Below, in pieces: positions 1,439 to 49,415 of a DNA stretch of 64,000 bases. The position numbers and the translations under genes were made by a program. A model generated the notes under the pieces. It saw only the letters and a list, made by a program, of their open reading frames with translations, was not told the origin of the DNA and searched no databases. The stretch's first letter is position 1, and every line of letters starts with the position of its first letter. Origin of the DNA: a virus; the IMG/VR virus record IMGVR_UViG_3300024518_002836, positions 4,076-68,075 of that record. One strand, 5' to 3'.

Positions 1439-3046
1439 TCACCCTTGTAATACCCAATGGGTTTTAACTGTACAAAGATTTAAATTTCTAGGCATAACAG
1501 TCGCTTCGACTGTAATTGGTCCCTTATCATCAGGAATAGTCCAATTACTTGCAGTAATATGATAATCTTCGAACTTCAAAAGAATCTGTTCGGTATTATC
1601 TTTATCAAATTGTAAATCAATTGTGGATGTGACGGACGGAACTTCTGCTTCTGTAAATAATTCTTCAAAGAGAGCATCATCAGTTACAAGTGCTGTAAAT
1701 GATAATTCATAATTTCTTTGTGCGGGTAAACCATATTTAATATCTTTATTTCCAATACCAATAAATCTCTTATCTTGCAGATTATTGTTAATGGTTAAAG
1801 ATAGATTTGTAATTTTCAAAAATGGAGTCCCAAAAATACTAAATGAACCCTTTGAAAAGAAGAACGGGTCTAAACATTCCACTTCTGAATTTTCATAATT
1901 AAACAGTGATGTGTTAGTTGTTTGACCGCCTCTTGCTTCGTAATTAGTAGTTCGTGCTAATTTATTAACAGCAGCAGTATTTAAATCCATTGTTAATTTT
2001 AACTCTTCATTTTCATTAGCGGTCATAGTCATAGTATTAACTCTATTACCTCTAGCAATTCTAACAAAAGTATGAGATTCACTCGCGGCACCTGTTTCAG
2101 TAGTTAATGTCGTATCAGGATTTTTTGCAATTGATTGTTCAAGGGCAAAGGAGGGCAATTCAGAAGTTTCTGATTCTGTAAACGTATAAGTAATCGCTTT
2201 TTCAACAGCAACAGCAGTTGAAGTTGTTCTTACTACTTTCTCTAATTGACCCGATACATCTGAACCTTGTAGAATTGGTGGCATCAAAGTTTTAGCCTGT
2301 GAAATTCCAGAAGTGGCAACAGCGGCTTTATAAAAAATTGGGCCAGTTTCTACATGGGTAGTATTTGTGATTTCTGAACTAAATGTAGAACCACCACCAT
2401 TATCAATATAAACGTCACCGGCAGTAACACCATAATAACCAGAAGGCATAGTAATATTAGCCAATTCACAGTCAAGTGTTGCACATTTTCCAAAAGCGTA
2501 ATAAAGCCAAGCACCTGTATGTGCTGCTAAATTAATATTTCCGCCTGAAGCGGTTTTAATACCTTTGTATTGATGAGTAAAATTTCTTGAACCACCAAGT
2601 TGTAAATTGAGTTGTTTCATTTCAATATCAACATTGGGGAATGCTGCGGATTCAACAAGACCTAACCAATTATCAGCATTTAATCTTGAAATAGAACCAT
2701 ATTTTGGCCCAGGACAAGGAGCAGCATAACTTCTAACGATAGCAAAATCAGTTTCATCCACTAAAGTCCCTGTTGCGTGAGCAGGTGTAATGGTAAAAGC
2801 AGTAGTTGTATTACCAGTAATTGTATGAGTAGAAGCAGGTGTCGCATTTGACACATCTGCATCATATAAATCTAAAGTGCAACCAACATACAAATCAGGC
2901 ACTAATAACATTCCTGTTTGGAATGCGTTAGATGTTACTAAACTTGTTGTTGTGCTTGATGTATCTAAAGTGATACATAATTCTAATTCTGGTACTAGTG
3001 TTAAACTAGCGCCACTTCCCAGAAAAATTTCGTTATTTACTACCAT
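1439..3046 (-). CDS. Major tail (tube) protein
   Basis: 535 aa, T/S/G-rich beta protein; LPSFALEQS, NLSLTINNNL and GPITVEAT segments resemble siphovirus tail tubes; synteny. Confidence 0.7.
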   Translation of the reverse strand: MVVNNEIFLGSGASLTLVPELELCITLDTSSTTTSLVTSNAFQTGMLLVPDLYVGCTLDLYDADVSNATPASTHTITGNTTTAFTITPAHATGTLVDETDFAIVRSYAAPCPGPKYGSISRLNADNWLGLVESAAFPNVDIEMKQLNLQLGGSRNFTHQYKGIKTASGGNINLAAHTGAWLYYAFGKCATLDCELANITMPSGYYGVTAGDVYIDNGGGSTFSSEITNTTHVETGPIFYKAAVATSGISQAKTLMPPILQGSDVSGQLEKVVRTTSTAVAVEKAITYTFTESETSELPSFALEQSIAKNPDTTLTTETGAASESHTFVRIARGNRVNTMTMTANENEELKLTMDLNTAAVNKLARTTNYEARGGQTTNTSLFNYENSEVECLDPFFFSKGSFSIFGTPFLKITNLSLTINNNLQDKRFIGIGNKDIKYGLPAQRNYELSFTALVTDDALFEELFTEAEVPSVTSTIDLQFDKDNTEQILLKFEDYHITASNWTIPDDKGPITVEATVMPRNLNLCTVKTHWVLQG

Positions 3047-3898: not shown

Positions 3899-4999
3899 TC
3901 ACTCGATTAAAAATATAGTCTCTCTAGTGAGTTTAAGTAAATCTTCTACTTCTTTCTTTAATAAATCGTATTTCATTTTAATATCAATTTGTGAACCTGA
4001 TTCTGCAATTAGAACAGTTTGGTCATCATGTCTAAGGATTTCACACGCTACAAGTTTTGTTGCTGCATCTGAAATAATTCCGGGAACTCTAGGATTACCT
4101 GCAATATACGTAATCCTAATAGAATTCTTTTCCATATATGGAAATTTAGTTCTGAAGAAAATCCTTCCTTCATCATCTAATCTCCACCAAGTTCCAAGTC
4201 TTTTCATTTGTTCATTATCTGTAAATCCAGATACAGAAAGACCCGTTGAAACATAACTACCACTAGTATCAATAGCAATTGAACAATTAGAACCATCATC
4301 TGATAATAACAAAGATGAGATAATAACGGTATTTTCATCTTCACTATCTAATGTAGCATAGAAATATTTAGCCGGATTATCTGATTCTGATTTAGAAGCA
4401 ACTGCTCCAGTAATCATTGCAGTATTAGTAGGAAACGTTTCATTAATTAAATACACTAATTCTTGAGCGGAAGTTTTTGAACCAAGAGTATTATTAAATT
4501 GACTAGATGCAGTTCCACTATCTAATGAAATTACTGTAGAATTAGGTAATGTTAAATTGATTCTATTAGTAGTTCCTCTATTATCTGAACTGAAAGTTAC
4601 TTTAGCAGTAGCCGAGGCTAAATCAGTCCATGTATTACCTTGCCAAACTTCAATTCTAATCATTTTGCGAATATGTCGATGGTTTAATTGACAAAACCCG
4701 ACATAATCAGACCACCATGAGGGCCATTTACGAAGAGAACCCCCTGTCGGACTACGGAAATTGTGCATTTCATTAGCGTAAAAGATGGGTCTATAAGACA
4801 TACCCGTTGTTTCATCAATATAATCTTCCGCATTTTTAATATATTGACCTACTTGAGAATAATCAGGATTGGTTGTTCCAGAAAAAGATGGAATTTGTAG
4901 TAAATCTGCAACAAGGTTTTCATTAGTGTAATGCCCTTGTCCAGTAGCATAATTAGGATTAATTGCAGTATAGTCAGAAGGAGAGGATAGTTTAACCAT
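3899..4999 (-). CDS. Putative head-tail adaptor/connector protein with inserted domain
   Basis: N-terminal IKNAEDYIDETTG and C-terminal IRITYIAG..VPGIISDAATKLVA pattern of gp6/gp15-like adaptors. Confidence 0.6.
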   Translation of the reverse strand: MVKLSSPSDYTAINPNYATGQGHYTNENLVADLLQIPSFSGTTNPDYSQVGQYIKNAEDYIDETTGMSYRPIFYANEMHNFRSPTGGSLRKWPSWWSDYVGFCQLNHRHIRKMIRIEVWQGNTWTDLASATAKVTFSSDNRGTTNRINLTLPNSTVISLDSGTASSQFNNTLGSKTSAQELVYLINETFPTNTAMITGAVASKSESDNPAKYFYATLDSEDENTVIISSLLLSDDGSNCSIAIDTSGSYVSTGLSVSGFTDNEQMKRLGTWWRLDDEGRIFFRTKFPYMEKNSIRITYIAGNPRVPGIISDAATKLVACEILRHDDQTVLIAESGSQIDIKMKYDLLKKEVEDLLKLTRETIFLIE

Positions 5000-6584
5000 T
5001 AAATGCACCCCCAATAGCCTCTTCTAATTTAGCCAATCTAGAAGTAACATGAGTTGCTAAAAATTTCCTTTGTGGATTATATCCTAATGAACGTCTTTTT
5101 CGTCTATCCTTTTCTTCTTTCATAGTTAAGGGTTGAGTAGTATCTCTCTTCTTACCAAATCTAAACTTTAATGCCCTTTCACCCTGCGAACCAGATGGAT
5201 TCATTAATAGTTCTGGGGTTAAAATCCTATTTTGAGTATATAACCAATCAGAAGTAATACTAATATCACGTTCACCTTCTTTTCTAGTAATAATTAATGT
5301 TATTTTATAGTCCCCAATAGATGTTAATGACATAGGCATTCCAATTATTTGAAAGTGATGGTATAAAGCATTATTATCCCAATTATATTCTAACCACTTA
5401 TGAACATTTTCTTTTGTTGGAGAATGGAATAATTCAATAGCATCATTAATAGAAGAACTATCAACATTTAAATTCTTTTTTGCCTTTGATGCTTCAATCC
5501 TCTCTGTTTTTTCAGAAACTTGTTCTTCTAAATCCTTTTCACCATATGGATGACGGGCAATAATTTTCTTTCCTAGCCCAGCCGTAAGGAGGGGCAAACT
5601 TTTCTTTCCTGCTTTAATATCTTTAATATCTGGTAAATCTTTTGTTTCTCCTGTAACGGTATCATAAATTTCCCAATCCTTTCGTTTAAGAGGAACTTTT
5701 CTCCATTCTTTTTTCCCAGAATCAATATCTTTTCTTTTAATTTTTTTTTCTTTCCACTTGGTTTCACCCATTCTTTTCATATGACTGGCAAATGGTGTTC
5801 TTGCTCCTTCCAATTTAAATGGCATTCCCTTAGCACTAGGTTTAATGACCTTACTATCGTGTTGAAATGATACTCGTTGTTTTGGAAAAATAGCTCGTAA
5901 TCTTTTCAAATGAACTTTTTTATCTGTAAGGTTAATATTAAATTTAATGATTAACTTATCTCCACCATGTTTTCCTAATCCTCCACTTTTAGTGATGTCA
6001 ATTGAGCCTTTATCATACCCATGTTTTAACTCTTCATTAGTTAAATTAACGGGGTCATCCTCATCAAAAACTCTATCTTGAAGGGGCTTTAATTTTGGTT
6101 TTCCATACGTAAATAATGGTTGAAAAAAATCTTCATGACTAACCTCCTCTGCAATATCTTTAACCTTCCAATTAGTATCATCTACATCCAAATATAATCT
6201 ACTAACCAAATCTTTATCTTTACTCCCATCAATAATTTTATGTTCACCAATATATTTTTCAACGGCATCAAGTAAATCCATATCAAGAATGGACTCTTTA
6301 GCCTTATTAACCCTTTCAAGCCAATCGTCTTGTTTATTGGGTTCAGTCGGAGGTTCCGACCATTTTTCCTCTTCGTCTGCACTAGGAGGATAAGCCCGAA
6401 TAGTCCGGTCTTTAATATTTTTTAACTGTTTAGGAATTATGTCTAATTCATCTACTTGTTTTAAATTAAATAAATATAGACCAATTGCCTGTTTAAGTTC
6501 AGAAATAGTAACTTCTTGGAGAATCCTTTTATTCCTATCGAATTTATCCCCATCAATTTGAAACCAATGGTATCGAAAAGACAT
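4992..6584 (-). CDS. Hypothetical Lys-rich protein (530 aa)
   Basis: Long ORF in the structural operon; no recognisable motif. Confidence 0.6.
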   Translation of the reverse strand: MSFRYHWFQIDGDKFDRNKRILQEVTISELKQAIGLYLFNLKQVDELDIIPKQLKNIKDRTIRAYPPSADEEEKWSEPPTEPNKQDDWLERVNKAKESILDMDLLDAVEKYIGEHKIIDGSKDKDLVSRLYLDVDDTNWKVKDIAEEVSHEDFFQPLFTYGKPKLKPLQDRVFDEDDPVNLTNEELKHGYDKGSIDITKSGGLGKHGGDKLIIKFNINLTDKKVHLKRLRAIFPKQRVSFQHDSKVIKPSAKGMPFKLEGARTPFASHMKRMGETKWKEKKIKRKDIDSGKKEWRKVPLKRKDWEIYDTVTGETKDLPDIKDIKAGKKSLPLLTAGLGKKIIARHPYGEKDLEEQVSEKTERIEASKAKKNLNVDSSSINDAIELFHSPTKENVHKWLEYNWDNNALYHHFQIIGMPMSLTSIGDYKITLIITRKEGERDISITSDWLYTQNRILTPELLMNPSGSQGERALKFRFGKKRDTTQPLTMKEEKDRRKRRSLGYNPQRKFLATHVTSRLAKLEEAIGGAFNG

Positions 6585-6601: not shown

Positions 6602-7255
6602 TCAGACTAGCCATTTAGCCCATGCTGCTGCTTTGGATAATGTTTGCCCTAATCCTAAACCACCTTGAGGCGGCGTATATGACATTTGTCCCGTTTGGGG
6701 GTCAATCCAATATGGATTATTCATTTGGTCGTAACCATTTGGAGGAACCGGATAACCGCTTTGCATACCCTGATTGATTCCCATAGCAGCCCCTGAAGCG
6801 CCTCCAACGGTCGCACCCATGCCGACCCCTACCGGGGCTGAATGCGGCCCTCCTGTGGTTTGTGGACTAAAGCCTTGACTCTCTAAATACTGTTGTTTAG
6901 CCATTTTGCGCTGAACGATAACTTCGCTATTAACAGCAGAAGCTAATAAAGTCTGAATGTCTAATTGGATATTTTCTTGTGTGATAGAATTATATTCCGA
7001 TAAACACTTTTCTTGCAAGGTTATATGATTAGTAGTTGGATTTAATACAAATTCTAATTTAGAAAGCATTTGTGAAATAACACGTTGTAACACATCCTCA
7101 AATATTTTTTCAAATGAAACCATAAACTCTTCGCCATGATACTGGAAGAATTCTTCCACATGGTTTTCTTGAAGAGTCAATAAATTATTTATATTTTTAA
7201 AGCTTTGATTCTGGGAATCAGCTAATGCAGAATTCAATGTACTGTTTCTAACCAT
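6602..7255 (-). CDS. Hypothetical protein with G/P/Q-rich tail and C-terminal amphipathic helix
   Basis: Ends GLGLGQTLSKAAAWAKWLV; coupled to the GTPase operon. Confidence 0.6.
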   Translation of the reverse strand: MVRNSTLNSALADSQNQSFKNINNLLTLQENHVEEFFQYHGEEFMVSFEKIFEDVLQRVISQMLSKLEFVLNPTTNHITLQEKCLSEYNSITQENIQLDIQTLLASAVNSEVIVQRKMAKQQYLESQGFSPQTTGGPHSAPVGVGMGATVGGASGAAMGINQGMQSGYPVPPNGYDQMNNPYWIDPQTGQMSYTPPQGGLGLGQTLSKAAAWAKWLV

Positions 7256-7892
7256 TTTCATTTACCTCCAATAAAGGAATAATTTGTTGTATCTGTAATA
7301 ACTTACCTTGAACTTCTAACATGATTCTAGTATATTGTTGATAAGGCATTTCTTTAGTTCCTTTAGGCGGCTCAATAGTCCATCCGGCAGATATTAAAGT
7401 GATTACTTCTGTTGCGGTTAAATCGGTTAATGGTCCTCTAGAAACCATATTTGGAAAGCGTGGCTTAGGAATGTATTTTTTAAATTCTAACCCATGATTA
7501 TTTGCAAGAATCTGTTGTTCTAATGTTTCCATTTGAATAAACATTGATGCGTGTTTAGGACAATAATTACCTTTTAATGGTCTGCCCTTATATACTTCTG
7601 ATAAAGGAATTGGTGGTCGCATTGTATCTGAAGCATCCCATTCATGATATGCACCACATACTATACAACGACATTTAACATTAAATTTAGCTCCATATTT
7701 AAAAATGAACCTTTTCTTTTCCGGATAAAGAACCTTTCTAATTTCCTTTAATTGTTTCTTTTCTTTTGAACTCTTATATTCATAAGAAGTAATAGGACCG
7801 GGCATTCTAGCCACTTGAAGTGTAGTAAACCCCATTGTTGAATTAGGGCCATTTAAATTAAGTAAACCGGGTGGGGAAAAAGATATGCTCAT
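7248..7892 (-). CDS. Hypothetical Zn-binding protein
   Basis: CIVC...YCPKH motifs; directly downstream of the GTPase. Confidence 0.55.
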   Translation of the reverse strand: MSISFSPPGLLNLNGPNSTMGFTTLQVARMPGPITSYEYKSSKEKKQLKEIRKVLYPEKKRFIFKYGAKFNVKCRCIVCGAYHEWDASDTMRPPIPLSEVYKGRPLKGNYCPKHASMFIQMETLEQQILANNHGLEFKKYIPKPRFPNMVSRGPLTDLTATEVITLISAGWTIEPPKGTKEMPYQQYTRIMLEVQGKLLQIQQIIPLLEVNENG

Positions 7893-7902
7893 TTTAATCA
7901 CC

Positions 7903-8571
7903 TTAATAATCATCACACATTGTCATTACTCCCCGGTATACCATCTCCGGGTCTGATTTGGCTGAAACGACGTATTTGAAACAGGGGATTCCTTTTTCAT
8001 TGAGCCGTTGCATACCGTATGCGAATGGTTCAAAAATTGGGTGGTTAGACATATTGTCGAGTTCAAATCCATTCCCCCATAAATCAAATTTATTTGCCCA
8101 TAATCCTACTGCTATTGGGTAATCTTTATCCTTTTTTCTTTTTCTTTTGTTACCATCTCGCCAATATGAATCACAAATTAAATCTATTAAATATTGCCAA
8201 GCTAATTGATTTTGCATATTTACATTACTAGTTAGATGCCGATTATCTATCATAAATATTATATATCTTGGTTGTCTTTTCCTCATATCCCTTTTCCATA
8301 ATTCCCAGTATTTAGATTCTCCGCCAACATCTGCTACTTTAACTGTGTGTATATCTTTATCAATCTTAATTAATTTTCTAGTGGGGCGTTCTAATCCAAC
8401 TGTTCTCTTTTTAATTTCAGGGACTTCGCCTCTAGTTTGTAATTGTCTATGAAGTGTAGTTTTTCCTACTTCTGATGCACCATATATTCCAAAATTAATT
8501 GCATGGACTCTTTTCCAAAATGCTCCTAATGCTTCAATAAATACAATAGCGAAACCTGCGACGACTGACAC
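7903..8571 (-). CDS. Arf/Sar1-like small GTPase
   Basis: G1 GASEVGKT, G2 RTVG, G3 DVGG, G4 ANKFD, G5 SAK; N-terminal hydrophobic helix; GGTGA SD. Confidence 0.85.
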   Translation of the reverse strand: MSVVAGFAIVFIEALGAFWKRVHAINFGIYGASEVGKTTLHRQLQTRGEVPEIKKRTVGLERPTRKLIKIDKDIHTVKVADVGGESKYWELWKRDMRKRQPRYIIFMIDNRHLTSNVNMQNQLAWQYLIDLICDSYWRDGNKRKRKKDKDYPIAVGLWANKFDLWGNGFELDNMSNHPIFEPFAYGMQRLNEKGIPCFKYVVSAKSDPEMVYRGVMTMCDDY

Positions 8572-8628
8572 ATATAATCACCTAATTAGGGTATAAAAAT
8601 AAAGCTCTTTCTTACTTCTCTCATAATT

Positions 8629-8841
8629 TCAACTCCAAATTCTTGATAACCAATTCCAACTTACTCCAAAAAAATTAATTCCAAATACTCCACAAATATT
8701 ACCTATAAGAAGTGATGCAACAACGGCTGTAATACCATACATCCACGCTCTAATTTTAAGAAATACAATATCAGCAGAATGTGCTCTTGTCATATCATAT
8801 GCAACAGATGTTTCATCCAATCCAAACAAGTCTAATAGCAA
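8629..8841 (-). CDS. Small membrane protein
   Basis: Hydrophobic C-terminal segment(s) WMYGITAVVASLLIGNICGVFGINFFGV. Confidence 0.6.
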   Translation of the reverse strand: MLLDLFGLDETSVAYDMTRAHSADIVFLKIRAWMYGITAVVASLLIGNICGVFGINFFGVSWNWLSRIWS

Positions 8842-8856
8842 ATTAATTCCTCAGTA

Positions 8857-9237
8857 TTATGGCTCGATTCCATCGAGAAAAACACTTGGAACTTCATTGT
8901 CATTATACGGTTTAGTATATGGACTCATATTCATCTGTCTCATAGAATCAACAATTTTACTTTTCTGCTGTTCTTCCCTTTTTCTCTTTTCCCAATACAT
9001 ATGGATTTTTCTATCGAGAAGCCATAATTCCATACGGTCATTCATTATTAAGTCGAACACTGCTTTAATACCCATAACAAATCCAATGGTAATTAAAGAG
9101 AATAGTGCTGCATGGCTTAATGCTGACCACGGTAACTCTGCTCCATAGTTTGCATAAAAATAAATATTCATTCCACTAACTGCACCAACGAATAATATCG
9201 CCATAACTAATCTAGTATCTTTATTTATTGCCGCCAT
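8857..9237 (-). CDS. Two-TM membrane protein (holin-like topology)
   Basis: Two hydrophobic helices followed by a charged cytoplasmic tail. Confidence 0.6.
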   Translation of the reverse strand: MAAINKDTRLVMAILFVGAVSGMNIYFYANYGAELPWSALSHAALFSLITIGFVMGIKAVFDLIMNDRMELWLLDRKIHMYWEKRKREEQQKSKIVDSMRQMNMSPYTKPYNDNEVPSVFLDGIEP

Positions 9238-10434: not shown

Positions 10435-11799
10435 TCACTGAAGATTTGTTAACTTGCCTTGTCCCTTAAAGAAAGTGCAGCCAGTTTCGCCCATTGTTCG
10501 GAACATGGCCTTGTTTCCAAGTGCGCCAACACCAAACGGGTTTCCAGAATTGATACCATCCTCGAAGTATTGAGTCGGTTTCATCACAGCCAACCATAAA
10601 TGGTCAGTATCTAAGAACAGCATATCACTCACTTGAGTTGTTGCTTCTCCAGAATTAGGCATATCCTTGCAAGGAATCAACGGAATGTCGAAATACGTAG
10701 CAACACGGAAACCGACTTCTCGACCCTTAATACCACGAACACCTTGATGCGAAGGAATAATCTCTTTTCGCTCCATAAAGCGTTCCTGCGCTTGGAGTAA
10801 ATCAGCAATCGCTTGAATCGTATCATAGCCACTTAAGATAACTTTGGGCGTTCCACCATTCGTGCGTAGGTTCTGCAAAGTAGTGTTAATTAGCGTTAAA
10901 GTAAGCGAACGAACATCTGCCGCAGCATAACCATCACCGTAATTCACATACGAATCCATAAAAGACGTATTGTATGCGTTTGCAACTAAATCACGACTGT
11001 TGTTTCCATACAAATAACTGTATTGGTCAATTAATCCACCAGTCGAAGACGTTGAAGCCATACTTCCGTGCATTCCTGCATCAACCATAGCCTCTAATTC
11101 TTGGCTACTTGCAACAATTTTATTCAAAGATGTGTAATTGAGTTCAATGTCTGCATATGATGTGTGGTCATAGTTTTCAAGGGGCATAACCAGCATTTTG
11201 GACTGAACCTCAGCGTGGAATTTACCCATATCTTCACGAACGATGTTACGAATATCACCGATACCATCATCAATTTTAGCCATTTCTGCTGCTACTTCGG
11301 AGTAACCGAACATATGTGCAACAGTTTTAGGACTCATGAATAAGGTCGCATATTCAGGTGCAAGTTCTGAAAGACCAACAGTATTTAAAGAATGATTTTC
11401 TTTTACACCGCCAAGAGTATCTGCTGAAGGTGCGCTCATATCTGCTGTTGGAGTTGCTGACATATCAGTTGTTCCAATTGCAAAAGCCGCCGCACTTCCA
11501 CCCATAGGTCTGTCAATCATTACTCGCCAACCACTAGAAGAATACGGACGCTTTGGAAGAATCGAAAGAGGATTAATCTCTTGATTCAGCATACTCCAAA
11601 CTTTCTGACCATAAATTACGTTATATAAGTTAGATAAGTTAGATGCCGCTGTGCCTACAAACGCATTTGTTGCATTTGTGTCGTGAGCCGTGTGTAAGCC
11701 TAGTAAAGACCCACCGCTTTTCAGAATGTCATTCGTGCCGCCAAAAGTGCCGTATGTTGCGGCTTCAAGGTCAGCAATTGTGTTAATGTATTTTACCAT
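10435..11799 (-). CDS. Major capsid protein (HK97 fold)
   Basis: About 455 aa following protease/scaffold; C-terminal YFDIPLIPCKDMP...DMLFLDTDHL...MFRTMGE...QGKLTNL typical of archaeal tailed-virus MCPs. Confidence 0.85.
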   Translation of the reverse strand: MVKYINTIADLEAATYGTFGGTNDILKSGGSLLGLHTAHDTNATNAFVGTAASNLSNLYNVIYGQKVWSMLNQEINPLSILPKRPYSSSGWRVMIDRPMGGSAAAFAIGTTDMSATPTADMSAPSADTLGGVKENHSLNTVGLSELAPEYATLFMSPKTVAHMFGYSEVAAEMAKIDDGIGDIRNIVREDMGKFHAEVQSKMLVMPLENYDHTSYADIELNYTSLNKIVASSQELEAMVDAGMHGSMASTSSTGGLIDQYSYLYGNNSRDLVANAYNTSFMDSYVNYGDGYAAADVRSLTLTLINTTLQNLRTNGGTPKVILSGYDTIQAIADLLQAQERFMERKEIIPSHQGVRGIKGREVGFRVATYFDIPLIPCKDMPNSGEATTQVSDMLFLDTDHLWLAVMKPTQYFEDGINSGNPFGVGALGNKAMFRTMGETGCTFFKGQGKLTNLQ

Positions 11800-11829
11800 T
11801 TTAATCACCATTTATTGTTTCCAGCGTAT

Positions 11830-13149
11830 TCAGCGGAAATTGCGCTCCAGACGAGACATAGCAAGATGGATTTCATTCCAATCCATCTTTGCGATTTCAT
11901 CATAAGAAGGAACATCTAACGCATCAACGGCCTCTTGCCGCTTGATGATTACATTCTCCTTATCGTTCTTGAGTGTGTCAATGAGTTCACTAAATTGCTT
12001 CTTGAGTTCATTGACTTCTGTTCGGGGGTCGTATTCAGCCTTAGCAATTGCTTCTGCCTTGTTAGCAACCTCACTATTGAATCTTTGTTGGAATCCAGAC
12101 TTAATATCTTCATAAGCCATCTTTTCCATTTGTTCCGCCTTGAATTCAGCATATGCCTTTTCAAGGTTTTCTGCACTTAAATCTAAAGTGGGCGTATCGC
12201 CACCATAAAGAGACTTCTTTGCTTCAGTCCCAGAAACAACTGCAATCTGTCCATGCTTGTTCGAGGGGTTTCCACCAGAAACAATTTCTAAACCAGCCTC
12301 ATCTTCTAATGGCGCTCCATACGGAACATCAGTTTTGCTCTTTTGTGCTAATTCAAGGTCATCGCCTTCATCAACTACTTCTTCTTCACCATGCGCCGAT
12401 TCTAAATCATCGGGTAATGGTGCTTCTTCTTCAGATTCTTCGGTATCTAAGTATTCACCTGTCATGTTTTGTTCACCATCCACTAACTCTAGGTCGGTTG
12501 GTTCTTCTACGGAACGCGGATTTGCTTCCTTAGAAATGTTTTCTCCTTTAATTTCTTTAAGGAGACTATTCAGTTCTTCTAATGCCTTTGTAACTTCAGT
12601 CATTTCATCACCATTATCTTGTTTTAAAATATCAAATTTTGCTTCAGGGTTAATTCCTTTTTCACAAATTGTAACTTCATGTAATTCCAATTTACTAATT
12701 TCGTTATAATCCCCTAATTCTTTATTCTGCTTCTTTCTTTTTTCTAACGCTTGACCGCCAATACTAAAAGAACGAAGAGTACCTTTTCTTATATCTCGAC
12801 TAACTTCCTTAGCCTTTTCAATATCATCTCTTAATTTAATTACTACAAAAAACCCAACATCATCAACGCTGCTTTTCCATAATCTCCCAGAAACATCTCT
12901 ATATTCTTTAACTACTTCTCCAACTTGAACATTTGAATGATTTGTCATCACGTTGCTAAACTTTGGAGTAGTCATGAATTTTTTTACAGCATCTCCTAAT
13001 GCGTCTAAGGTAATTAAATCGTTTTGTTTATCAACAATTTCAATAGAAGCATATCCACCAATATATAACTCATCTGATTTTAATATCTGAAAATCATGCG
13101 AAATACTGGGTTTAATCGAAGGACTAAACTGTATGGCGGCGCTCGTCAC
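11830..13149 (-). CDS. Prohead protease fused to acidic scaffold region
   Basis: IGGYASIEIVDKQND, NHSN (His), RSFSIGG (Ser), LHEVTICEKGINPEA are HK97-type prohead protease motifs; acidic/coiled-coil C-terminal half. Confidence 0.85.
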   Translation of the reverse strand: MTSAAIQFSPSIKPSISHDFQILKSDELYIGGYASIEIVDKQNDLITLDALGDAVKKFMTTPKFSNVMTNHSNVQVGEVVKEYRDVSGRLWKSSVDDVGFFVVIKLRDDIEKAKEVSRDIRKGTLRSFSIGGQALEKRKKQNKELGDYNEISKLELHEVTICEKGINPEAKFDILKQDNGDEMTEVTKALEELNSLLKEIKGENISKEANPRSVEEPTDLELVDGEQNMTGEYLDTEESEEEAPLPDDLESAHGEEEVVDEGDDLELAQKSKTDVPYGAPLEDEAGLEIVSGGNPSNKHGQIAVVSGTEAKKSLYGGDTPTLDLSAENLEKAYAEFKAEQMEKMAYEDIKSGFQQRFNSEVANKAEAIAKAEYDPRTEVNELKKQFSELIDTLKNDKENVIIKRQEAVDALDVPSYDEIAKMDWNEIHLAMSRLERNFR

Positions 13150-13185: not shown

Positions 13186-15744
13186 CTATTCAAGCGTGGT
13201 GAAGGACAAATCTTTATTCTCATCTTCCCTAACATCCCATATACCATCATCTGTGGACGATTCAACAGGTTCTTCAACAAAACTTGAAAATGCTAACCAT
13301 TGTTTCTGTCCCTTTAAAGGAATAACCCGTAAATGTAACTTAGTATCAAATTTCTCTCCCTTAAGGAAATATTCGTGATAACCATGTCTCTGCACTCCCA
13401 ATTCAATAGACCCCTTATCAATTAGTTTTTCCTTAGAAACGGTCTCTTGGACTCTTGCTGGATATTTACCCGCTTTACCAAATAAATCAAACACATTATC
13501 AATCGAATCAATTTGTATTTCCCAGCCTATTTGTTCTTTATTTAAAAGAAAACTTAAATCCAAATTACCATCTTTTCTAAGGTATAATTTAAAATCACCC
13601 TTTCTATATTCTTCGGGAGTTTTATACCCTTTAACAATAGTCATAGGATTCGTTTCAAACCCTTCTTCTAATATTTCTTCATCATCCAAAGTCGTAAAAT
13701 TAGTATTACTTAAAGGAATAATATCATTAAATTTATTTTTCATATCTTCTGCTAATTTTTTAGGGTTATCGTTCCAAACCTCTTTAAATAATCTTTTAAA
13801 ATCCTTATCTCTAAGACCATTTTCTATAATATCTTCCAATTCCATTTCATTATCATTTTCTCTAATTAGTTTTATTATTATTGCCCTCATATGGCCGGTC
13901 TTTGCTTTTAATAATTCAACAATTTCTTCTTTAACAACATCTAAATCCACAAGAGCATTTTTAGCCATTAAATTATTATTTTTAAAACCATAAATGGTAA
14001 ATCCATCCATATCATATTTAAGAATAATTTCAGTTTCTCCATGAATATCATCAGTAATAGAAATGCCCTTCTCCAAAGCCCTTGCCTTGTAAGATTTAGT
14101 ATCACCATCAGTATTGGCTAACAACTCCAAAGTTATTAATTTATCAGGAGTCTCTACTTCAGGAATTTCAATCACTTTAGCTGAATAAACTCTAAATTGT
14201 CCCTTACTATTCTTCTTCACTTCATCAACCTTCACACGAATAATTTTACCAATCTCAACATTAATTTTAGTATTTAATGCTTTACCAACATTTAAATAAT
14301 ACCTATCATTAACCTTCTCAGATTGAAGTTTCCTTGCTTCTGCTGGTAATATAGGTCCAGCCCCTAAAGTGTAAGAATTTAAATTAGATTTGGTCGTTTT
14401 CTTATCCAATACTATCAAATCTAAATCAACAAATTTCTTCCATTTAATCCATTTTGGGTTCTTTTTTGCTCCTTTAATATATGTAGAAGTAAGGTCTTTA
14501 ATAACTACTCCTTCAGCAGTTGGAATCTTCATTATCTCTTTAGCATATTTATTAATATCAGACAAACTATCAGCAATTCTAGTGTCCTTTTTAGAAGGGA
14601 ACTGTAATTTTTCATCAGAATGAATAGAGTAATTTTGGAAAAGAATATTAATCCTATCTTGAAGAGGAGAATCAGTTAAATCTCTATCATTATGACGCAT
14701 AATATCAAACACATGACATTTCAATACACCATCTGATTTTTTCCCCTTAAAAATTTTAGCCACGACTTGTGCTCTATGTAAGGGTTTATCATTTTCAAAC
14801 AACATTAGTTCCCCATCAAGAATACATTCACCAAATTTCTTTTCTTTAAGAATTTTAACCTGTTCTGAACATCTATCAGTAATATCATTACCATTAAATG
14901 AATAAATCGAAACCTTATTATCAATTTTATGTAATTGTATCCTCATTCCATCGTATTTTTCCTGAACAAGCCAATCTCCTGTAAATCCTTTAAGTTCATT
15001 AATATCATCTACATCGAAGATTCTATACATTGGCTTATTTGGGACAAGGAAGTGAATATCGTCCTTTTCCTTGTCGGCCTTCTCAATATCAAGACCGAGT
15101 AATTCCTCCCACTCGGATTTGGAATAAAATTTTAGATACAAAGCCTTTAATAAGGACATAGCACCCTTAACTTTGGCTTTAACCTCTTGTGTATTTTTCT
15201 CATCCCCATAATGCTCCATAATGTAGGGGGTGATGGTCTTCTCATGTAGGTCTAGGCCGTCATACCCGTCAGTAATTTGGTCGCCTTTGGGGAGATATTC
15301 CGACCAAAATTCAATTGGAAGGGCGTTTCGGTCATCTCTAATCGCCCAATGGATAAATAGAGCAAGATGTGCTTTATTTTCTAATAGTCTTTCTAGAACT
15401 TGTTCCTTGAATTCTTTAGAAAATGGGTCTTTAACATAATCACTATCATATCTAAGAGTTTTAATGGCATTATAGATAGTCTGAGCTAATGTTGATTCAG
15501 GATTATTTGCTTCAGAAGATTCTAAATCCTTTTCATCTAATACTCGTTTTAATTGTCTAGAAAGGTCATCAATATCTGAATAAATATTTTTCAATTTATC
15601 AATAGACTTTTGCCAATCCTTAGCATAATCTTTTGGTTGCTGTCTAGCAGTAAGATAGGATGCCCTAATCTCTTCAAAAAGGCGCTGAATACGCCTAGAA
15701 AGAGGATTTTTCTCTTTCTTAAATCGGAGACCACTTAAAGGCAT
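13186..15744 (-). CDS. lig: ATP-dependent DNA ligase with N- and C-terminal extensions
   Basis: Motif I QEKYDGMR, LDGE, VFDI, EGVVIK, WIKWKK and OB-fold region; C-terminus resembles the LigD phosphoesterase domain. Confidence 0.9.
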   Translation of the reverse strand: MPLSGLRFKKEKNPLSRRIQRLFEEIRASYLTARQQPKDYAKDWQKSIDKLKNIYSDIDDLSRQLKRVLDEKDLESSEANNPESTLAQTIYNAIKTLRYDSDYVKDPFSKEFKEQVLERLLENKAHLALFIHWAIRDDRNALPIEFWSEYLPKGDQITDGYDGLDLHEKTITPYIMEHYGDEKNTQEVKAKVKGAMSLLKALYLKFYSKSEWEELLGLDIEKADKEKDDIHFLVPNKPMYRIFDVDDINELKGFTGDWLVQEKYDGMRIQLHKIDNKVSIYSFNGNDITDRCSEQVKILKEKKFGECILDGELMLFENDKPLHRAQVVAKIFKGKKSDGVLKCHVFDIMRHNDRDLTDSPLQDRINILFQNYSIHSDEKLQFPSKKDTRIADSLSDINKYAKEIMKIPTAEGVVIKDLTSTYIKGAKKNPKWIKWKKFVDLDLIVLDKKTTKSNLNSYTLGAGPILPAEARKLQSEKVNDRYYLNVGKALNTKINVEIGKIIRVKVDEVKKNSKGQFRVYSAKVIEIPEVETPDKLITLELLANTDGDTKSYKARALEKGISITDDIHGETEIILKYDMDGFTIYGFKNNNLMAKNALVDLDVVKEEIVELLKAKTGHMRAIIIKLIRENDNEMELEDIIENGLRDKDFKRLFKEVWNDNPKKLAEDMKNKFNDIIPLSNTNFTTLDDEEILEEGFETNPMTIVKGYKTPEEYRKGDFKLYLRKDGNLDLSFLLNKEQIGWEIQIDSIDNVFDLFGKAGKYPARVQETVSKEKLIDKGSIELGVQRHGYHEYFLKGEKFDTKLHLRVIPLKGQKQWLAFSSFVEEPVESSTDDGIWDVREDENKDLSFTTLE

Positions 15745-20611: not shown

Positions 20612-22246
20612 TCACCTCGTTTCTGTGCGTTTATCAACATTTTGATTACCTGCCTCTTTAGGCAAGCCTGTGGCTCTCTTATCAGGCCCTACGCTCATTG
20701 AGGGTTTATTCCTTGTGGCTCCGGCGTCCACCTTCGGAGTATCTTTTCCTCCCTGCATCATTTGTTCCTGCATTTGCCCCATTTGACTAGAATCTATATT
20801 AGTTCCAGCATACGGGTCAGTTTCGACTTTACCTCCTTTTTCGCCAGAAGGTGCCTGTTGTGGCTCAGGCGGTTCCTTCTTAAACGTAAACTCACCTTCT
20901 TCATTCATATCCACCACAAACCCAAGATTCTTAATTGACGCAGCAATGTTAACTTCAATTTCTCTCTTCCGCATTACTGCAATTTCATCTTCTTCTTCGG
21001 AAGGCGGTAATACTAATCGCCAATCTGTAATCCCGAATTCTTTAACCACCCATGGAAATACATAATGGTTATAAACGTTCTGAGCCATTTCAACTGCACG
21101 GTTAGTAACAAGGATTTGCATACCCTCATTATTTAATCCACCGCTAGCCGAATTATCCGCCATAAAGATTTTACTCACACCATAGAATGCAGAAATTCTA
21201 TCTCGAAGGTCTTCCTTAACAGCAACATATTCCATTTCTTTAAGCGAATCCATAAATTTAATCCACTCAATAGACCCCTTACCATTTTCTGCTTCAATAC
21301 CCATAACTGGAATAAAATGTTGGTCTTCTTCCATTTTTTCTTTAACTGCTCTCCAAAAAGTTCGCATTGATTCAATATTACGAGTTTGAACAGCAAGCAA
21401 TCCTTTAGGCATACGGCTCTTTGTATAAGAAGTGTTCACATAATTCTCCATAGCAATAAGAGTAGTAATATGATTAAATAATGTAATAATAGGAGAAGAA
21501 CCATACATTCTACCCGGTGAATACTTGCTAAAATGTAATACTTCTCCTTCAATAAAATATTGGTCTTCACCATGAACGCGATTTACATAATGAACCGGAT
21601 AAAGAGTCTCATTTGTTTCTGGATGACACTCAAAAGCATTTTCTGCAAGATACTCTCTATCATTAAGTGCAGTAAACCCTTTAGTTCCACGTTCACCAAC
21701 TTCATCAGAATAAATAGCCATAGTAACCGGGTCTGCCCTATAAATTTCTTTGACTTTGTGAAGTTTAATATCACCATTACCATCTAAATAATACTCTTTA
21801 ACAAGAACAACATAAGCATCATCAACAATATTTAAATCATCTTCTAACTCTTTAAATACATCAATTAACATTTGATTAGATTTATTAACATAACCATCAA
21901 ACATATTTTTTGCGTATTTTAATTGATTTTGATTAGGCTTTCTTAAATTAATAGAACCACATTCAGAACACTCTTCAACAGGAGCCTCATGTTCTTTATC
22001 ACAATCTAAACATTTCTGTGCAAACTTTTTTCGCCATTCATATCCCCGTCGGAATACTTCATTTTTTAATTGTGTAATACACGTTCTAGTAATTACCGAA
22101 TTATGAGCCAAATTAAATAATAACGGGGTAGTCATTAAATAATTTGCCTCTCTTTCCTGAATACCTAAGTTAAACACCTTTCGGTCAGCAGGTTTAGGAG
22201 TGCTTCTCCTTAAGAAATTTCTAATAGACCACTTTCTCTTTACCAT
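20612..22246 (-). CDS. Portal protein
   Basis: 544 aa near terminase; GRMYGSSPI, MPKGLL and RISAFYGVS motifs of HK97/SPP1-like portals; CxxC..CxxC insert. Confidence 0.85.
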   Translation of the reverse strand: MVKRKWSIRNFLRRSTPKPADRKVFNLGIQEREANYLMTTPLLFNLAHNSVITRTCITQLKNEVFRRGYEWRKKFAQKCLDCDKEHEAPVEECSECGSINLRKPNQNQLKYAKNMFDGYVNKSNQMLIDVFKELEDDLNIVDDAYVVLVKEYYLDGNGDIKLHKVKEIYRADPVTMAIYSDEVGERGTKGFTALNDREYLAENAFECHPETNETLYPVHYVNRVHGEDQYFIEGEVLHFSKYSPGRMYGSSPIITLFNHITTLIAMENYVNTSYTKSRMPKGLLAVQTRNIESMRTFWRAVKEKMEEDQHFIPVMGIEAENGKGSIEWIKFMDSLKEMEYVAVKEDLRDRISAFYGVSKIFMADNSASGGLNNEGMQILVTNRAVEMAQNVYNHYVFPWVVKEFGITDWRLVLPPSEEEDEIAVMRKREIEVNIAASIKNLGFVVDMNEEGEFTFKKEPPEPQQAPSGEKGGKVETDPYAGTNIDSSQMGQMQEQMMQGGKDTPKVDAGATRNKPSMSVGPDKRATGLPKEAGNQNVDKRTETR

Positions 22247-22410: not shown

Positions 22411-23766
22411 TCACTCCTCACCTTGAGATGTTTTAGAGATACTGTCTAAATCATCCATAAGACTAATTTTACAATTATTATGTAATTTAGCAACGGTTTC
22501 AAAATCAATACCATATTGTGAGAAGTCATAATTAACATGGTCTTTGTGATTTTCATATTTCATTAACTTGAAAATTTCTTCACATCGACTTTTATACCAA
22601 TCAGCCTTTTTATAGCCCTTTTTCATACGAATCAATTCAAGAAGTAAATCAGCATTTGCACCTTTCATTCTAAAATGTGGACGACACTTAGTTAGTAATT
22701 CAGTAACATCTGATTGAGAATAAAAATTTAATCTATTAACTGGTCTAGTACCTTGAGGAGATTTTTGGTCAAGATGTAATTTACCAATTCCCAATGCTTT
22801 TTGAATCTCAATCATAAAGGCTTTACCTCTATCCCCAGTAGCAACTAATCCTACTCTTGGATTATGACTTTTATCCACAGTAATATAGCCATCAGAGTCA
22901 ATAAACGCGGCAGTATAAGAATACAAGTCCTTTTTAATCTCATCGGGCAATTTATAGTTGGCTCCCTCAATAGAAGTAATCCCAATCTTTTTAATTTGCT
23001 TAGATATGGTTTGTGGCGAACACAGTTTATATAATTTATTTGACATTTTTTCATGAATTTGCCTAGAAGAAATCCCCGGTGAATCACAAACAGCCTTAAT
23101 AATAAATTCTGAGATTTGTTTATTGAGATTTTTTCTAACGGATTGATGAGGTATCTCTTTTAAGAAAGAACGAAATTCCTTTTTCGAAGAAGACATTTGT
23201 TTAGATAATCTAGAATATTCTTTAGAATAAGCAGTGCCTTTAATATCTAAATCCGCCTCCCAAAATTTACAAAGAATATCAACCATTCTACTTCTATCTG
23301 AATAATCTTTCAAAGAATTAATTTTCTTTAAATCCATCTCATTATACTTCATTTTCTTAAGAGGAGATTGATATTTATCTAACCAATAAATAGATTTAAT
23401 ACAATCATTTAAATGAGATGAATAGGAATTAATTAAATTTTCAATACCCTTAGTTAATTTAATTTTATTATCCCCTTTAACGGTCCTACGATATTTTCGT
23501 AAATCTTTAACTAATGTGGAAATATTTTGATTATCACAAGTACAATCTTCAGGATAATCATCTAATTTCTTTTTAACTCTAGATAAATTAATATTAAATT
23601 GCTTAGCCATATTAATGGATAATTCATATTCATCACATAAAGGCTGCTTTCTAATCCATTTAACTAAATCTGCCTCTTCAAGAATTAACTCACGCTCTTC
23701 CTCAATAGGCTCTAATTCATCTGCGGCTGCACGAAGTTTACTAGAAGTTAAGACCAAGAACACCAC
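22411..23766 (-). CDS. LAGLIDADG homing endonuclease-like protein with long N-terminal extension
   Basis: YTAAFIDSDGYITV motif followed by typical IQKALGIGKL and LLTKCRPHFRMK segments; start codon uncertain. Confidence 0.75.
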   Translation of the reverse strand: MVFLVLTSSKLRAAADELEPIEEERELILEEADLVKWIRKQPLCDEYELSINMAKQFNINLSRVKKKLDDYPEDCTCDNQNISTLVKDLRKYRRTVKGDNKIKLTKGIENLINSYSSHLNDCIKSIYWLDKYQSPLKKMKYNEMDLKKINSLKDYSDRSRMVDILCKFWEADLDIKGTAYSKEYSRLSKQMSSSKKEFRSFLKEIPHQSVRKNLNKQISEFIIKAVCDSPGISSRQIHEKMSNKLYKLCSPQTISKQIKKIGITSIEGANYKLPDEIKKDLYSYTAAFIDSDGYITVDKSHNPRVGLVATGDRGKAFMIEIQKALGIGKLHLDQKSPQGTRPVNRLNFYSQSDVTELLTKCRPHFRMKGANADLLLELIRMKKGYKKADWYKSRCEEIFKLMKYENHKDHVNYDFSQYGIDFETVAKLHNNCKISLMDDLDSISKTSQGEE

Positions 23767-25177
23767 CTCCTATTACATTAACTGAATTTTCTTTAGAATC
23801 AAATAAATCCAAATCATCTAGCAATATGAAATGGTCAAGCGATTGGTGAGTTGCAGCGTTTGCTAGAGCAAGCCCCATAACTAAATCGTCGTGAGCGCCG
23901 ACCCCTTCAAACCTACCGCTGTCGGTGATAGCAAACATTGATAATTCATCTAAAATGGTATCTGTAACACGTCTGCTCTCTTCATTACCTCTAGGGAAAA
24001 TGATTTTATGGTTCTCAATATTCATTTGTAAATTAAGGATGATTTCTTGCTTCTTCTTTCTAGTAGTAGTAAAATCATGAACATTGAGGTCAGTCTCATT
24101 CCTTAATTCTTGAGTAAAAGACTTAGCAAAGGTGTTAGTCTCTAAAAATATGGATTCGGGTCTAAATAATTGCCCAATTAATTTAAGTTTATTGATATTT
24201 TCACGGAATTCAACATTTTTACTTCTATCCACAAACACAACACGTTTATTTCTATTTTCATCCACTTCTAAAACAAGAATAACATTGTAATCACCATCAG
24301 TTGAAATTGCAGGGTCAACACCAACAAAATATTTATACCCCTTTCGTTCACGCATTAATAATATGTCTTTCTTCCCTAATTTTTTACATTCATCTAAATG
24401 TTCAGGATTAAATAATGATGTTCCAGTTGAAATAGGAATACACATATATTCCCTTGTGAATTTTAATGAACCCACTTCAGATTTACGTTGCATTAGTGCA
24501 TCATAACCCCAACGTTCCGGCCAAAGTGGCTCATTTAATTGATTTAAACAGGGATACCTTCTAACAGTATAAGCATCATTCTCCTCCAGTTCTGTAAAAA
24601 TATCAGTATATGTAAATGGAGTTCCAATCATTCTTAATGATGCAGTATGGTGAAGAGTAGGAATCATATCACCAAAGAACCAATCTGTAACCTTTTTAAT
24701 TGCAGATAAACTAAATTCCTTTAATGGGTCATCAATAATAATTTCTTGAGGGTGAAGACCACGAATCTGTGAACCAATTGAACGTTCAAGAATAGAGTTA
24801 CCATTTGTAAGTGTAATATTTCCCACAGCCCAACCGCGACTAGGGCGGAATTGTTTTAATGCGGGTTTATTAAAAAGGCGGTCAATATCTCTCATGTGAA
24901 CCATAGTCTGTTTATGGTTAGAAGAAATGTATAGCATTTGAAATGGTGGCGGTTGAAATACTAAATTCCATACAGCCCATGAGTGCATGAAGACAGATTT
25001 GCCGTGGTCACGACTACAAATAATAACCGTCCTAGTAGTATTATTCATCATTTCTAACCATTCTTCATGGAATGATGTAAAATCAAACCCTAAAATGTGT
25101 TGAAAGAAATATGGGAATGAAGATTTAGAAATCTCCATATCCATTTCAGTTGTGAAATCTAATTGTTCAGTTTCCAT
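23741..25177 (-). CDS. terL: Terminase large subunit
   Basis: Walker A SRDHGKS, Walker B IIIDDP, motif III IGTP, nuclease GVDPA and HDDLVMGLALA. Confidence 0.92.
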   Translation of the reverse strand: METEQLDFTTEMDMEISKSSFPYFFQHILGFDFTSFHEEWLEMMNNTTRTVIICSRDHGKSVFMHSWAVWNLVFQPPPFQMLYISSNHKQTMVHMRDIDRLFNKPALKQFRPSRGWAVGNITLTNGNSILERSIGSQIRGLHPQEIIIDDPLKEFSLSAIKKVTDWFFGDMIPTLHHTASLRMIGTPFTYTDIFTELEENDAYTVRRYPCLNQLNEPLWPERWGYDALMQRKSEVGSLKFTREYMCIPISTGTSLFNPEHLDECKKLGKKDILLMRERKGYKYFVGVDPAISTDGDYNVILVLEVDENRNKRVVFVDRSKNVEFRENINKLKLIGQLFRPESIFLETNTFAKSFTQELRNETDLNVHDFTTTRKKKQEIILNLQMNIENHKIIFPRGNEESRRVTDTILDELSMFAITDSGRFEGVGAHDDLVMGLALANAATHQSLDHFILLDDLDLFDSKENSVNVIGGGVLGLNF

Positions 25178-48466: not shown

Positions 48467-48551
48467 GCGGGGTTTCCAGAGTGGTCAAATGGGAGAGGCT
48501 TAAGACCTCTTGGATAATCCTTCGCAGGTTCAAATCCTGCACCCCGCACCA
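48467..48551 (+). tRNA. tRNA-Leu(UAA)
   Basis: Cloverleaf with AGAGG-CT-TAA-GA-CCTCT, variable arm and encoded CCA. Confidence 0.9.
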
Positions 48552-48561
48552 ATTCTTAAAA

Positions 48562-48635
48562 GGACAGTTAGCACAGTCTGGAAGTGCGCCACGCTCATAA
48601 CGTGGTAGTCATTGGTTCAAATCCGATACTGTCCA
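48562..48635 (+). tRNA. tRNA-Met(CAU) (or Ile2)
   Basis: GGACAGT/ACTGTCC acceptor; CCACG-CT-CAT-AA-CGTGG. Confidence 0.85.
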
Positions 48636-48953
48636 TTAACGAGGCATAAATATGAGAAATATAATTTTATTTGAGAAAATATTAGATAAAATGGGCGAAG
48701 TAAACTCATTTGATGTTAGATACCAATTAATAATTAGTTGGTGTGTAACATGATATGTTTTAAATGTAAAGAAGAAATGTTTTGTATTGAGACCTTTACT
48801 CAAGGCCAACAATCAATAGTGGGCTTTGAGTGTAGACCCTGCAAAATAAAGTATGAGGTGAAGAACAATGCCAATGTGTAAAAAATGTTCTTGCACCCGA
48901 TTTATTGGGCATGGTAACAAAGTATATTGTGTTAATTGTAATGAGGTGATAAA

Positions 48954-49199: not shown

Positions 49200-49203
49200 A
49201 AAG

Positions 49204-49404: not shown

Positions 49405-49415
49405 TGTAGCAATTT

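Follow-up and report, generated by a model that had tools for sequence, protein, structure and literature searches.

Among the closest described counterparts of the system considered here are Arf-like GTPases that carry an N-terminal helix. ArvA, which is Arf-like by hidden Markov model, has such a helix and, according to the accessible part of its description, drives vesicle budding in Euryarchaeota together with the Zn-ribbon partner ArvC (PMC10927574). The Arf family proper is set apart by the interswitch toggle, given as its defining feature in the available part of another source (10.1101/2024.02.28.582541). The egress machinery of tailed archaeal viruses is called "completely uncharacterized" in the accessible text of a review (PMC10791045). 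Here we analyze a block of five genes at positions 6602-9237, minus strand, of a 64,000-nt stretch of the record IMGVR_UViG_3300024518_002836 (positions 4,076-68,075 of that record; hereafter the window). The window belongs to a magrovirus, i.e., a tailed virus of the Marine Group II archaea that abound in the ocean, and magroviruses rank with the most abundant viruses in surface ocean waters according to the accessible text of their description (PMC5434244). The block encodes, in order of transcription, two small membrane proteins (TM126 and TM70), a small GTPase of the Arf/Sar/SR-beta/G-alpha branch, a Cys/His-rich putative zinc protein, and a modular fifth protein. On balance, we read it as a late-gene cassette of magroviruses, self-contained and inherited vertically, that would act at the host cytoplasmic membrane, with virion release as its preferred role.

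Comparison with Described Systems

With the Arf family, the viral GTPase shares motifs G1-G5, a DxGG followed by Trp in switch II, the IIFxxD strand, NKxD, and SAx, as well as a helix of about 22 residues ahead of strand 1, and its best profile matches are to Arf-family proteins. It differs in that this helix is hydrophobic in the window's clade, that Gly2 is not present, that the catalytic Gln is mostly replaced by Glu, and that a Lys-rich insert precedes NKxD, and also in being encoded by a tailed virus next to unrelated partners. The ArvA-ArvB-ArvC system (OapABC) of Haloferax volcanii and other Euryarchaeota and DPANN, as presented in the accessible part of the source, resembles the viral block in combining a GTPase with an N-terminal helix, the GTPases being compared here by description, and an operonic zinc partner, whereas the viral block adds two to three small membrane proteins and the modular fifth protein and is of viral origin. 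The beta subunit of the signal recognition particle receptor (SR-beta) is likewise an Arf-like GTPase with an N-terminal hydrophobic anchor, and three of its chains reach Z scores of 14.1, 13.3, and 12.7 in a VIA structure search with the viral model, in a tie with Arf6; yet the Pfam SRPRB cut-off is missed, and no partner resembling SR-alpha or SRX was recognized in Pfam scans of the block. To our knowledge, archaea use FtsY without SR-beta.

Two further comparisons concern viral systems. Phage holin/antiholin pairs share with the block a small protein with two transmembrane (TM) segments and a charged tail (TM126) that is adjoined by a second small membrane protein (TM70), whereas the block has no adjoining endolysin or envelope-degrading enzyme and no similarity to PHROG families, and the association of such proteins with a GTPase is unprecedented. 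The GTPases of giant viruses, exemplified by the mimivirus Rab (PDB 5XC5; VIA Z 13.2), are also virus-encoded members of the Ras superfamily, but they are close copies of the Rabs of their eukaryotic hosts, whereas the family described here is deeply divergent.

A Divergent GTPase of the Arf/Sar/SR-Beta/G-Alpha Branch

The third gene of the block (7903..8571, minus strand) starts with GTG, with AGGTGA 6 nt upstream, and encodes a small GTPase of 222 residues. The original prediction, made from the sequence alone, had attributed to it all five G motifs with Arf-type features, and each of the named motifs was found: G1 GASEVGKT (residues 31-38), RTVG (56-59), DVGG (81-84), YWELW (88-92), IIFMID (104-109), ANKFD (159-163), and SAK (203-205). 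Residues G31, G36, K37, T38, T57, D81, G83, G84, W89, W92, N160, K161, D163, S203, A204, and K205 are invariant in 24/24 aligned relatives, and G31, G36, K37, D81, G84, N160, K161, and D163 remain so in 22/22 sequences that include relatives of only 19-33% identity; judged from these alignments, such invariance of the G motifs is far beyond what chance would give. The motifs by which the Ras superfamily is recognized (G1, the G2 Thr, G3, G4, and G5) are thus all present, and the Pfam Ras model scores 24.7 bits, above its cut-off of 21.6, with Roc as a weaker, subthreshold match and with the generic small_GTP domain as the only NCBIfam match, under its cut-off.

Profile and structure searches place the protein more narrowly and bear out the earlier suggestion of a virus-encoded Arf/Sar-like GTPase. 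Searched singly against the PDB, the sequence finds Arl8A best (E 0.005), in an alignment that extends into the N-terminal helix. A profile built from the viral family gives 1012 PDB matches, the best 60 of which are all Arf, Arl, Asgard ArfR, or G-alpha Ras-like domains, with no Ras, Rab, or Rho among them; 8OUN (ArfR) is matched over the full length at E 1.7e-15, Arl3 at 4e-14, and Arf1 at 1e-12. The AlphaFold2 (AF2) model of the GTPase, with a predicted local distance difference test (pLDDT) score of 69.9, retrieves Arf1 and Arl8 first in Foldseek (E 3e-8), with Ras and Rab close behind. In the VIA search, the Z scores span a range of 12-14.6, with an Asgard Rag-like protein at 14.6, Arf6 at 14.3, SR-beta as given above, G-alpha at 13.9, Sar1 at 13.4, and Rab at 13.2, and Arl2 also stands among the top ties. 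From these searches, we take the GTPase to be a divergent member of the Arf/Sar/SR-beta/G-alpha branch; we do not file it as a member of the Arf family itself, because its score stays under the Pfam Arf cut-off, because its N-terminal helix is, in this clade, hydrophobic and of small moment, and because recognition of the toggle requires GDP- and GTP-bound structures. Some members of the family bear the automatic Joint Genome Institute name "GTPase SAR1 family protein."

The helix in question covers residues 2-22 (8506..8568, minus strand) in the AF2 model, with F7 and E13 invariant. Its presence and its hydrophobic nature had been foreseen, but an amphipathic character finds little support: the Kyte-Doolittle mean over 19 residues is 1.94, and on the Eisenberg scale, residues 2-19 have a mean hydrophobicity of 0.78 and a moment of 0.21 (range 0.21-0.33), so that the helix in the window's clade is strongly hydrophobic and appears not to be amphipathic. 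In the second clade, introduced below, the GTPase N-termini are less hydrophobic (KD17, a Kyte-Doolittle mean, 1.05-1.54).

Conservation, Range, and a Second Clade

At least 581 stretches in IMG/VR encode a close relative of the GTPase, and 80 of these loci were kept for an analysis of synteny in which 15 neighboring proteins of the window were searched by tblastn. As far as the contigs reach, gene order is identical in 80/80 loci: protease, capsid, small proteins, TM126, TM70, GTPase, zinc protein, fifth protein, a variable slot, p371, p197, and tail tube. TM126 was found in 79 of the loci, TM70 and the GTPase in all 80, the zinc protein in 76, and the fifth protein in 68, the misses lying at contig ends, so the neighbors are conserved together with the GTPase, as the original prediction had proposed to check. 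In median identity to the window, the GTPase ranks highest in the region (61.6%), ahead of the capsid protein (58.6%), the fifth protein (55.0%), TM70 (47.5%), TM126 (46.9%), and the zinc protein (46.5%). Pairwise distances between the GTPases follow those of the capsid protein with a Spearman coefficient of 0.75 and those of the cassette partners with coefficients of 0.61-0.82, values to be read with caution, since similarity to the GTPase was the criterion by which the loci had been selected and since the pairs lack independence. An independent sample was drawn by fetching 80 loci through the capsid protein; among these, exactly one copy of the GTPase is present in 26/26 records of at least 20 kb.

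Outside these viruses the family is almost absent. When its profile was run against 1.84 billion representative proteins, only 93 matches were obtained at E<=1e-3, and those of full length comprise the window's own 50% cluster, a group of 240-264 residues with 27-33% identity, and a few singletons. One genome from each of 185,579 prokaryote species yields two matches only, so the family is not a gene recently acquired from a host. Both of these cellular matches are contigs (L162 and L163; 28.9 and 12.2 kb) of one metagenome-assembled genome (MAG) of Maricaulis sp., with a GTPase 60% identical to that of the window, and they are probably viral contigs that were mis-binned. The distant relatives are singletons on short contigs: P0174, P0177, and P0156 gave nothing in scans of viral contigs, nor did P0177 in metagenome contigs, and the weak match P0205 (E 3.5e-4) is a Rab-family GTPase from a Heimdallarchaeaceae MAG. 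Named relatives in the databases include the hypothetical protein QKV95_gp088 of Poseidoniales virus YSH_150918. The five proteins are without a match among PHROG families, and tblastn found no match in 50,697 phage records, a set from which records near the window may be missing; the cassette is thus as unusual for a tailed virus as had been supposed. Taken together, this is a deeply divergent GTPase family that is confined to tailed viruses of archaea.

The group with 240-residue GTPases, about 30% identical to that of the window, forms a second clade that accounts for 266 further IMG/VR stretches, including five genomes that are 94-100% complete and about 100-105 kb long. With capsid proteins 42-50% and terminases 37-40% identical to those of the window, these genomes represent another lineage of magroviruses. 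The order of the block is kept: it begins with a protein of two or one TM segments with a charged coiled tail, a small TM protein, and the GTPase, and ends with a longer Cys/His protein, a Gln/Gly/Met-rich protein, and one more small TM protein. Homology between the clades is evident for the Cys/His proteins (hhalign probability 97.5%, E 6e-12), in an alignment that spans a Lys-rich helix, the CxxCG knuckle, the Trp, and CPxH, and for the N-terminal domain shared by the fifth proteins (95%, E 4e-8). The position is not kept: in 5/5 near-complete clade-2 genomes, the block, on the same strand, precedes the terminase gene by 7-11 kb and is separated from the capsid gene by 20-24 kb, as calculated from the coordinates of the loci. 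It has therefore been relocated as a whole and represents a module of its own, which shares the orientation of the late genes without being bound to the head-tail junction.

Partner Proteins

TM126 (8857..9237, minus strand; 126 residues) and TM70 (8629..8841, minus strand; 70 residues) are the two upstream membrane proteins that had been proposed, and both have segments that reach a Kyte-Doolittle value of at least 1.6: residues 9-29 and 39-66 in TM126 and residues 32-60 in TM70. In TM126, the segments are followed by a conserved helix, a tail rich in Lys, Arg, and Glu (of the KRKREEQQKSK type), and a C-terminal FLxxIE, and T8, L10, G18, G22, N24, K58, D62, E70, R76, and W82 are invariant in an alignment of 22 homologues. 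A small size, at least one TM segment, and a charged hydrophilic C-terminus, by which holins are recognized, are all found in TM126, whose two TM segments give it what appears to be the build of a class II holin, in agreement with the description in the accessible part of the review cited above (PMC10791045). TM70 has a conserved N-terminal AYDxxRAHSAD ahead of its TM segment and a Trp-rich end, and A14, R19, A20, H21, S22, A23, R31, and G47 are invariant in 22 homologues. In both sequences, positive charges flank the cytoplasmic sides, and by the positive-inside rule the conserved soluble parts of the two proteins would face the cytoplasm, on the side of the GTPase. Elsewhere in this neighborhood, hydropathy finds a hydrophobic segment only at the N-terminus of the GTPase.

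The protein encoded directly downstream of the GTPase (7248..7889, minus strand; 213 residues) had been taken for a Zn protein. Its Cys and His residues are indeed conserved, but its start is to be moved: it is most likely the ATG at 7889, which follows GGTGAT and lies 13 bases beyond the GTPase stop, rather than the GTG at 7916 that the list of open reading frames (ORFs) had given. The protein has a CxxCG knuckle (C75, C78), W84, an RPPIPL motif (residues 91-96), and a CxxH (C110, H113) at the beginning of a long helix. Across 73 sequences from both clades, C75, G79, W84, C110, and H113 do not vary and C78 hardly does, and the conservation of C75, C78, C110, and H113 supports a putative metal site; the RPPxPL-type motif is invariant at R91, P92, P95, and L96. 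In the AF2 model (pLDDT 76.6), the CxxC forms part of a beta knuckle and the CxxH opens a helix at residues 111-131, an arrangement that we take to be treble-clef-like. No recognizable fold match was obtained (Foldseek best E 4.0; best Z across VIA 4.3), a feature-based Atlas search yielded no usable neighbor, the profile yields a single match at chance level among PDB sequences (E 0.56), and Pfam finds no consistent family in 20 members. A reading as an ArfGAP, suggested by the motif CxxC...CxxCSGxHR of that family, gained no support, and we have dropped it: none of the 20 members matches ArfGap at a Pfam E<=10, and no fold match was obtained. Where an ArfGAP would have its invariant Arg finger, two residues after the conserved His/aromatic position behind H113, the residue varies (R/K/I/M).

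The fifth protein (6602..7261, minus strand; 219 residues; alignment of 20) consists of a conserved N-terminal domain (residues ~20-131), a variable linker rich in Gly, Gln, and Met, a WW-like segment, and a Trp-rich C-terminus, with the last 55 residues conserved. The profile of the whole protein matches nothing in the PDB, and a weak match to Romo1 was rejected because it falls in the low-complexity, Gly-rich linker, which is not conserved. The WW-like segment (residues 169-202; 6656..6757, minus strand; PVPPNGYDQMNNPYWIDPQTGQMSYTPP) is a lead that lies below family thresholds: four of the 20 homologues match the Pfam WW model at E<=1 with 15-20.5 bits, short of the cut-off of 26.9, and the window's own protein does not match it; the top three of five PDB matches to a profile of the region are WW domains of Itch, in register and weak (E 0.11-0.61); and WW families occupy six of ten rows among the structural neighbors of an Atlas model (TM scores 0.40-0.47). 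Both signature Trp positions of the WW domain would be Tyr here, and the segment is absent from the clade-2 proteins. From these three independent but weak pointers, we think a WW-like fold reasonably probable; that such a module might bind the RPPIPL of the adjacent zinc protein is an idea that could be put to the test and is offered as nothing firmer. The C-terminal tail, SKAAAWAKWLV (6605..6640, minus strand), had been described as an amphipathic Trp-rich helix. Within it, AAWAKWL is conserved and both W214 and W217 are invariant, but the moment of the tail reaches a modest 0.26-0.29.

Proposed Function and Alternatives

That the block forms a membrane-acting GTPase-switch module we regard as highly probable, and a module of this kind needed by every virus of these clades would be the reading with the best support. 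That its job is egress or lysis can be put forward only tentatively. At the core of the module would stand an Arf/Sar1/SR-beta-like GTP switch, able to hydrolyze GTP and held at the membrane through its hydrophobic N-terminal helix; TM126, with its class II holin build, and TM70, with its cytoplasmic AYDxxRAHSAD, would serve as membrane-embedded effectors or receptors; and the zinc protein and the fifth protein, the latter with its helical domain, flexible linker, WW-like segment, and Trp-rich tail, would join them in a complex as soluble partners, in the manner of a regulator and an adaptor. Expressed late, such a complex would have as its preferred specific role the timing or triggering of membrane disruption for virion release, and the functions named in the original prediction, i.e., membrane remodeling for egress or lysis or membrane-anchored assembly, are likewise to be understood as what the cassette may do. 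Control of release is favored because tailed archaeal viruses lyse by means that the accessible text of the review treats as uncharacterized, because no lysis enzyme is visible, and because the block contains holin-like proteins. A more elaborate version strikes us as doubtful. In it, the cassette would be the release machine of tailed archaeal viruses, and the anchored Arf-like GTPase, reading a nucleotide state or a timer, would act through the zinc regulator and a WW-like adaptor seated on RPPIPL to turn the holin-like proteins lethal; if it were true, Arf-type membrane switches with eukaryote-like partner modules would circulate in viruses of non-Asgard archaea.

A number of observations weigh against a membrane switch for virion release. 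We know of no GTPase-controlled holin. No lysis-type Pfam family occurs among the 58 scanned ORFs of the window of at least 100 residues, in line with the earlier remark that no endolysin-like gene is visible, and Pfam scans find no envelope- or S-layer-degrading enzyme beside the cassette. The membrane proteins are not uniform: four of 22 TM70 homologues fall below the Kyte-Doolittle value of 1.6 that the other 18 reach, one of 22 TM126 homologues falls below the threshold, and homology of the small membrane proteins across the clades is not demonstrable (hhalign probabilities 3.8% and 0.7%). As to the switch, the GTPase scores 19.3 bits against the Pfam Arf model (PF00025; cut-off 22.3) and 19.1 bits against SRPRB (cut-off 25), and the position after DVGG is Glu85 in the window and Glu in 19/24 close relatives, with Gln in the remaining 5/24 and in several members of clade 2. 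Nor does the Arv system lend its partners: in a six-frame search of the 68-kb record, OapB (PF09846) found no match at E<=0.01, with Haloferax and Methanosarcina controls positive, and OapC (PF09845) found none at E<=1, a different Cys/His protein following the GTPase. Strict translational coupling is not required, since genes with a "MSWxDILK" leader interrupt the cassette in a close relative, and the placement of the block among head-tail genes in the present virus would also be compatible with a role in assembly.

That last point is the starting point of what we consider an unlikely rival, namely that the proteins form a membrane-anchored platform for assembly or packaging that tethers procapsid, neck, tail, or virus factory, with the GTPase as an assembly checkpoint. 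The location of the block between the capsid (10435-11811) and tail-tube (1439-3046) genes in this clade speaks for it, as do the co-evolution with the capsid protein (Spearman 0.75) and the single-copy core status in 26/26 records. Its argument from position is weakened by clade 2, where the block lies outside the head-tail genes, 20-24 kb from the capsid gene and upstream of the terminase in 5/5 genomes, and none of the proteins resembles PHROG head, neck, or tail families. Virion-borne proteins for entry or ejection, in which the membrane proteins and their partners form a conduit for DNA in the next host and the GTPase is a pilot protein, draw on the same placement among structural genes and on the fact that phage ejection proteins often have TM segments. 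We hold this to be the least probable of the alternatives, as a GTPase carried in the virion would have no source of energy once outside the cell, the MSW-type leader common in this genome is missing from the start of all five proteins, and the position is, again, not conserved in clade 2.

Budding of vesicles in the manner of ArvA-ArvB-ArvC, for nonlytic release, decoys, gene transfer, or the overriding of a host vesicle system, would fit a zinc protein directly after the GTPase, given that ArvA works with the Zn-ribbon ArvC in the accessible part of its description (PMC10927574). We nevertheless rate it as quite unlikely: the OapB and OapC searches of the record came back empty, the zinc protein shows neither family in the Pfam scan, and tailed virions are not enveloped. 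A switch at the membrane for host takeover or superinfection exclusion, with no part in release, would be compatible with a membrane location and a switch protein, and the many accessory genes inserted nearby indicate that the region tolerates nonstructural functions; exclusion genes, though, are usually variable and early, whereas this block is conserved like the capsid and co-oriented with late genes, and we give this explanation little credence.

Virion release thus stays the role that we prefer, and the cassette offers a concrete and clonable candidate for it, or for another obligatory membrane step, because it is conserved like the capsid, moves as a unit, and has a membrane GTP switch at its core. 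Since the host is uncultured, tests must be heterologous. Whatever the role, Arf-like GTPases with an N-terminal membrane helix extend to viruses of Euryarchaeota-related hosts, alongside ArvA of Euryarchaeota and ArfR of Asgard archaea; the subthreshold WW-like motif of the fifth protein and the treble-clef-like zinc protein without a known fold match are also new here. Magroviruses and a GTPase were not found together in the searchable literature, and the main texts of PMC5434244, PMC10160649, and PMC11706807 do not mention any GTPase, although their supplementary gene tables could list the gene; the accessible literature that joins Poseidoniales, virus, and GTPase concerns Asgard and eukaryogenesis topics only.

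Genomic Context

The record comprises 68,075 bases and has an estimated completeness of 72%. Minus-strand genes extend from position 1 to ~40,800 of the window and include the terminase large subunit (23741-25177), the portal (20612-22246), an ORF with an ATP-dependent ligase domain (13186-15744), the prohead protease (11830-13149), the HK97-type major capsid protein (10435-11811; SU10_MCP, phrog_24667), and the tail tube protein (1439-3046; Phage_tube_2, 1.2e-14). The accessible text of Philosof et al. reports a ligase embedded in the structural module of magroviruses (PMC5434244), and the ligase inside the structural genes of the window agrees with it. Three small proteins, also on the minus strand, are encoded between the capsid gene and the block, whose location inside the morphogenesis cluster holds for this virus as had been stated. 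Its five ORFs were confirmed on the minus strand at the expected positions and are tightly packed, with gaps or overlaps of 15, 57, 13, and -14 bases in gene order and with Shine-Dalgarno-like AGGTGA or GGTGAT ahead of the genes. A search for RNA sequencing runs containing the block (6602-9237) listed none.

Directly after the block in the direction of transcription lies a variable, Lys-rich ORF of 530 residues (4992-6584), followed on the minus strand by ORFs of 371 and 197 residues before the tail tube gene. A detectable homologue of the 530-residue ORF is present in one of the 80 loci (L001, 31% identity), and the genes on either side of this slot are conserved. Locus L001 (5421-7707), with a GTPase 79% identical to that of the window, carries two additional small genes after TM70, ahead of the GTPase, and three more after the GTPase, ahead of the zinc protein. 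These inserts start with an MSW/MGW-x-D-I/T-LK leader after a "MIIKVIKM" junction (stop, GGTGAT, leader), and the window keeps the same junction ahead of its zinc-protein gene (7889-7916), without an insert.

Elsewhere, a Pfam scan of 38 ORFs of the window recognized a TFIIB-like protein (TFIIB repeat, 4.4e-10; TFIIB zinc ribbon, 2.9e-9), a Cpn60/TCP-1 chaperonin, the large subunit of ribonucleotide reductase, a ThiF-family protein, and a DnaJ-type zinc domain. Three tRNA genes (Leu-TAA, Met-CAT, and Arg-TCT) lie on the plus strand at 48467-49492. Leaders of the MSW type open many genes of this genome, and in the clade-2 virus L118 (922-7026 and 11674-12795), most ORFs upstream of the cassette have a short motif of the form (A/D)xAWxLLK close to the N-terminus and, in some cases, inside the protein. 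The motif may represent a common signal for targeting or processing, comparable to the MSW leader in the clade of the window.

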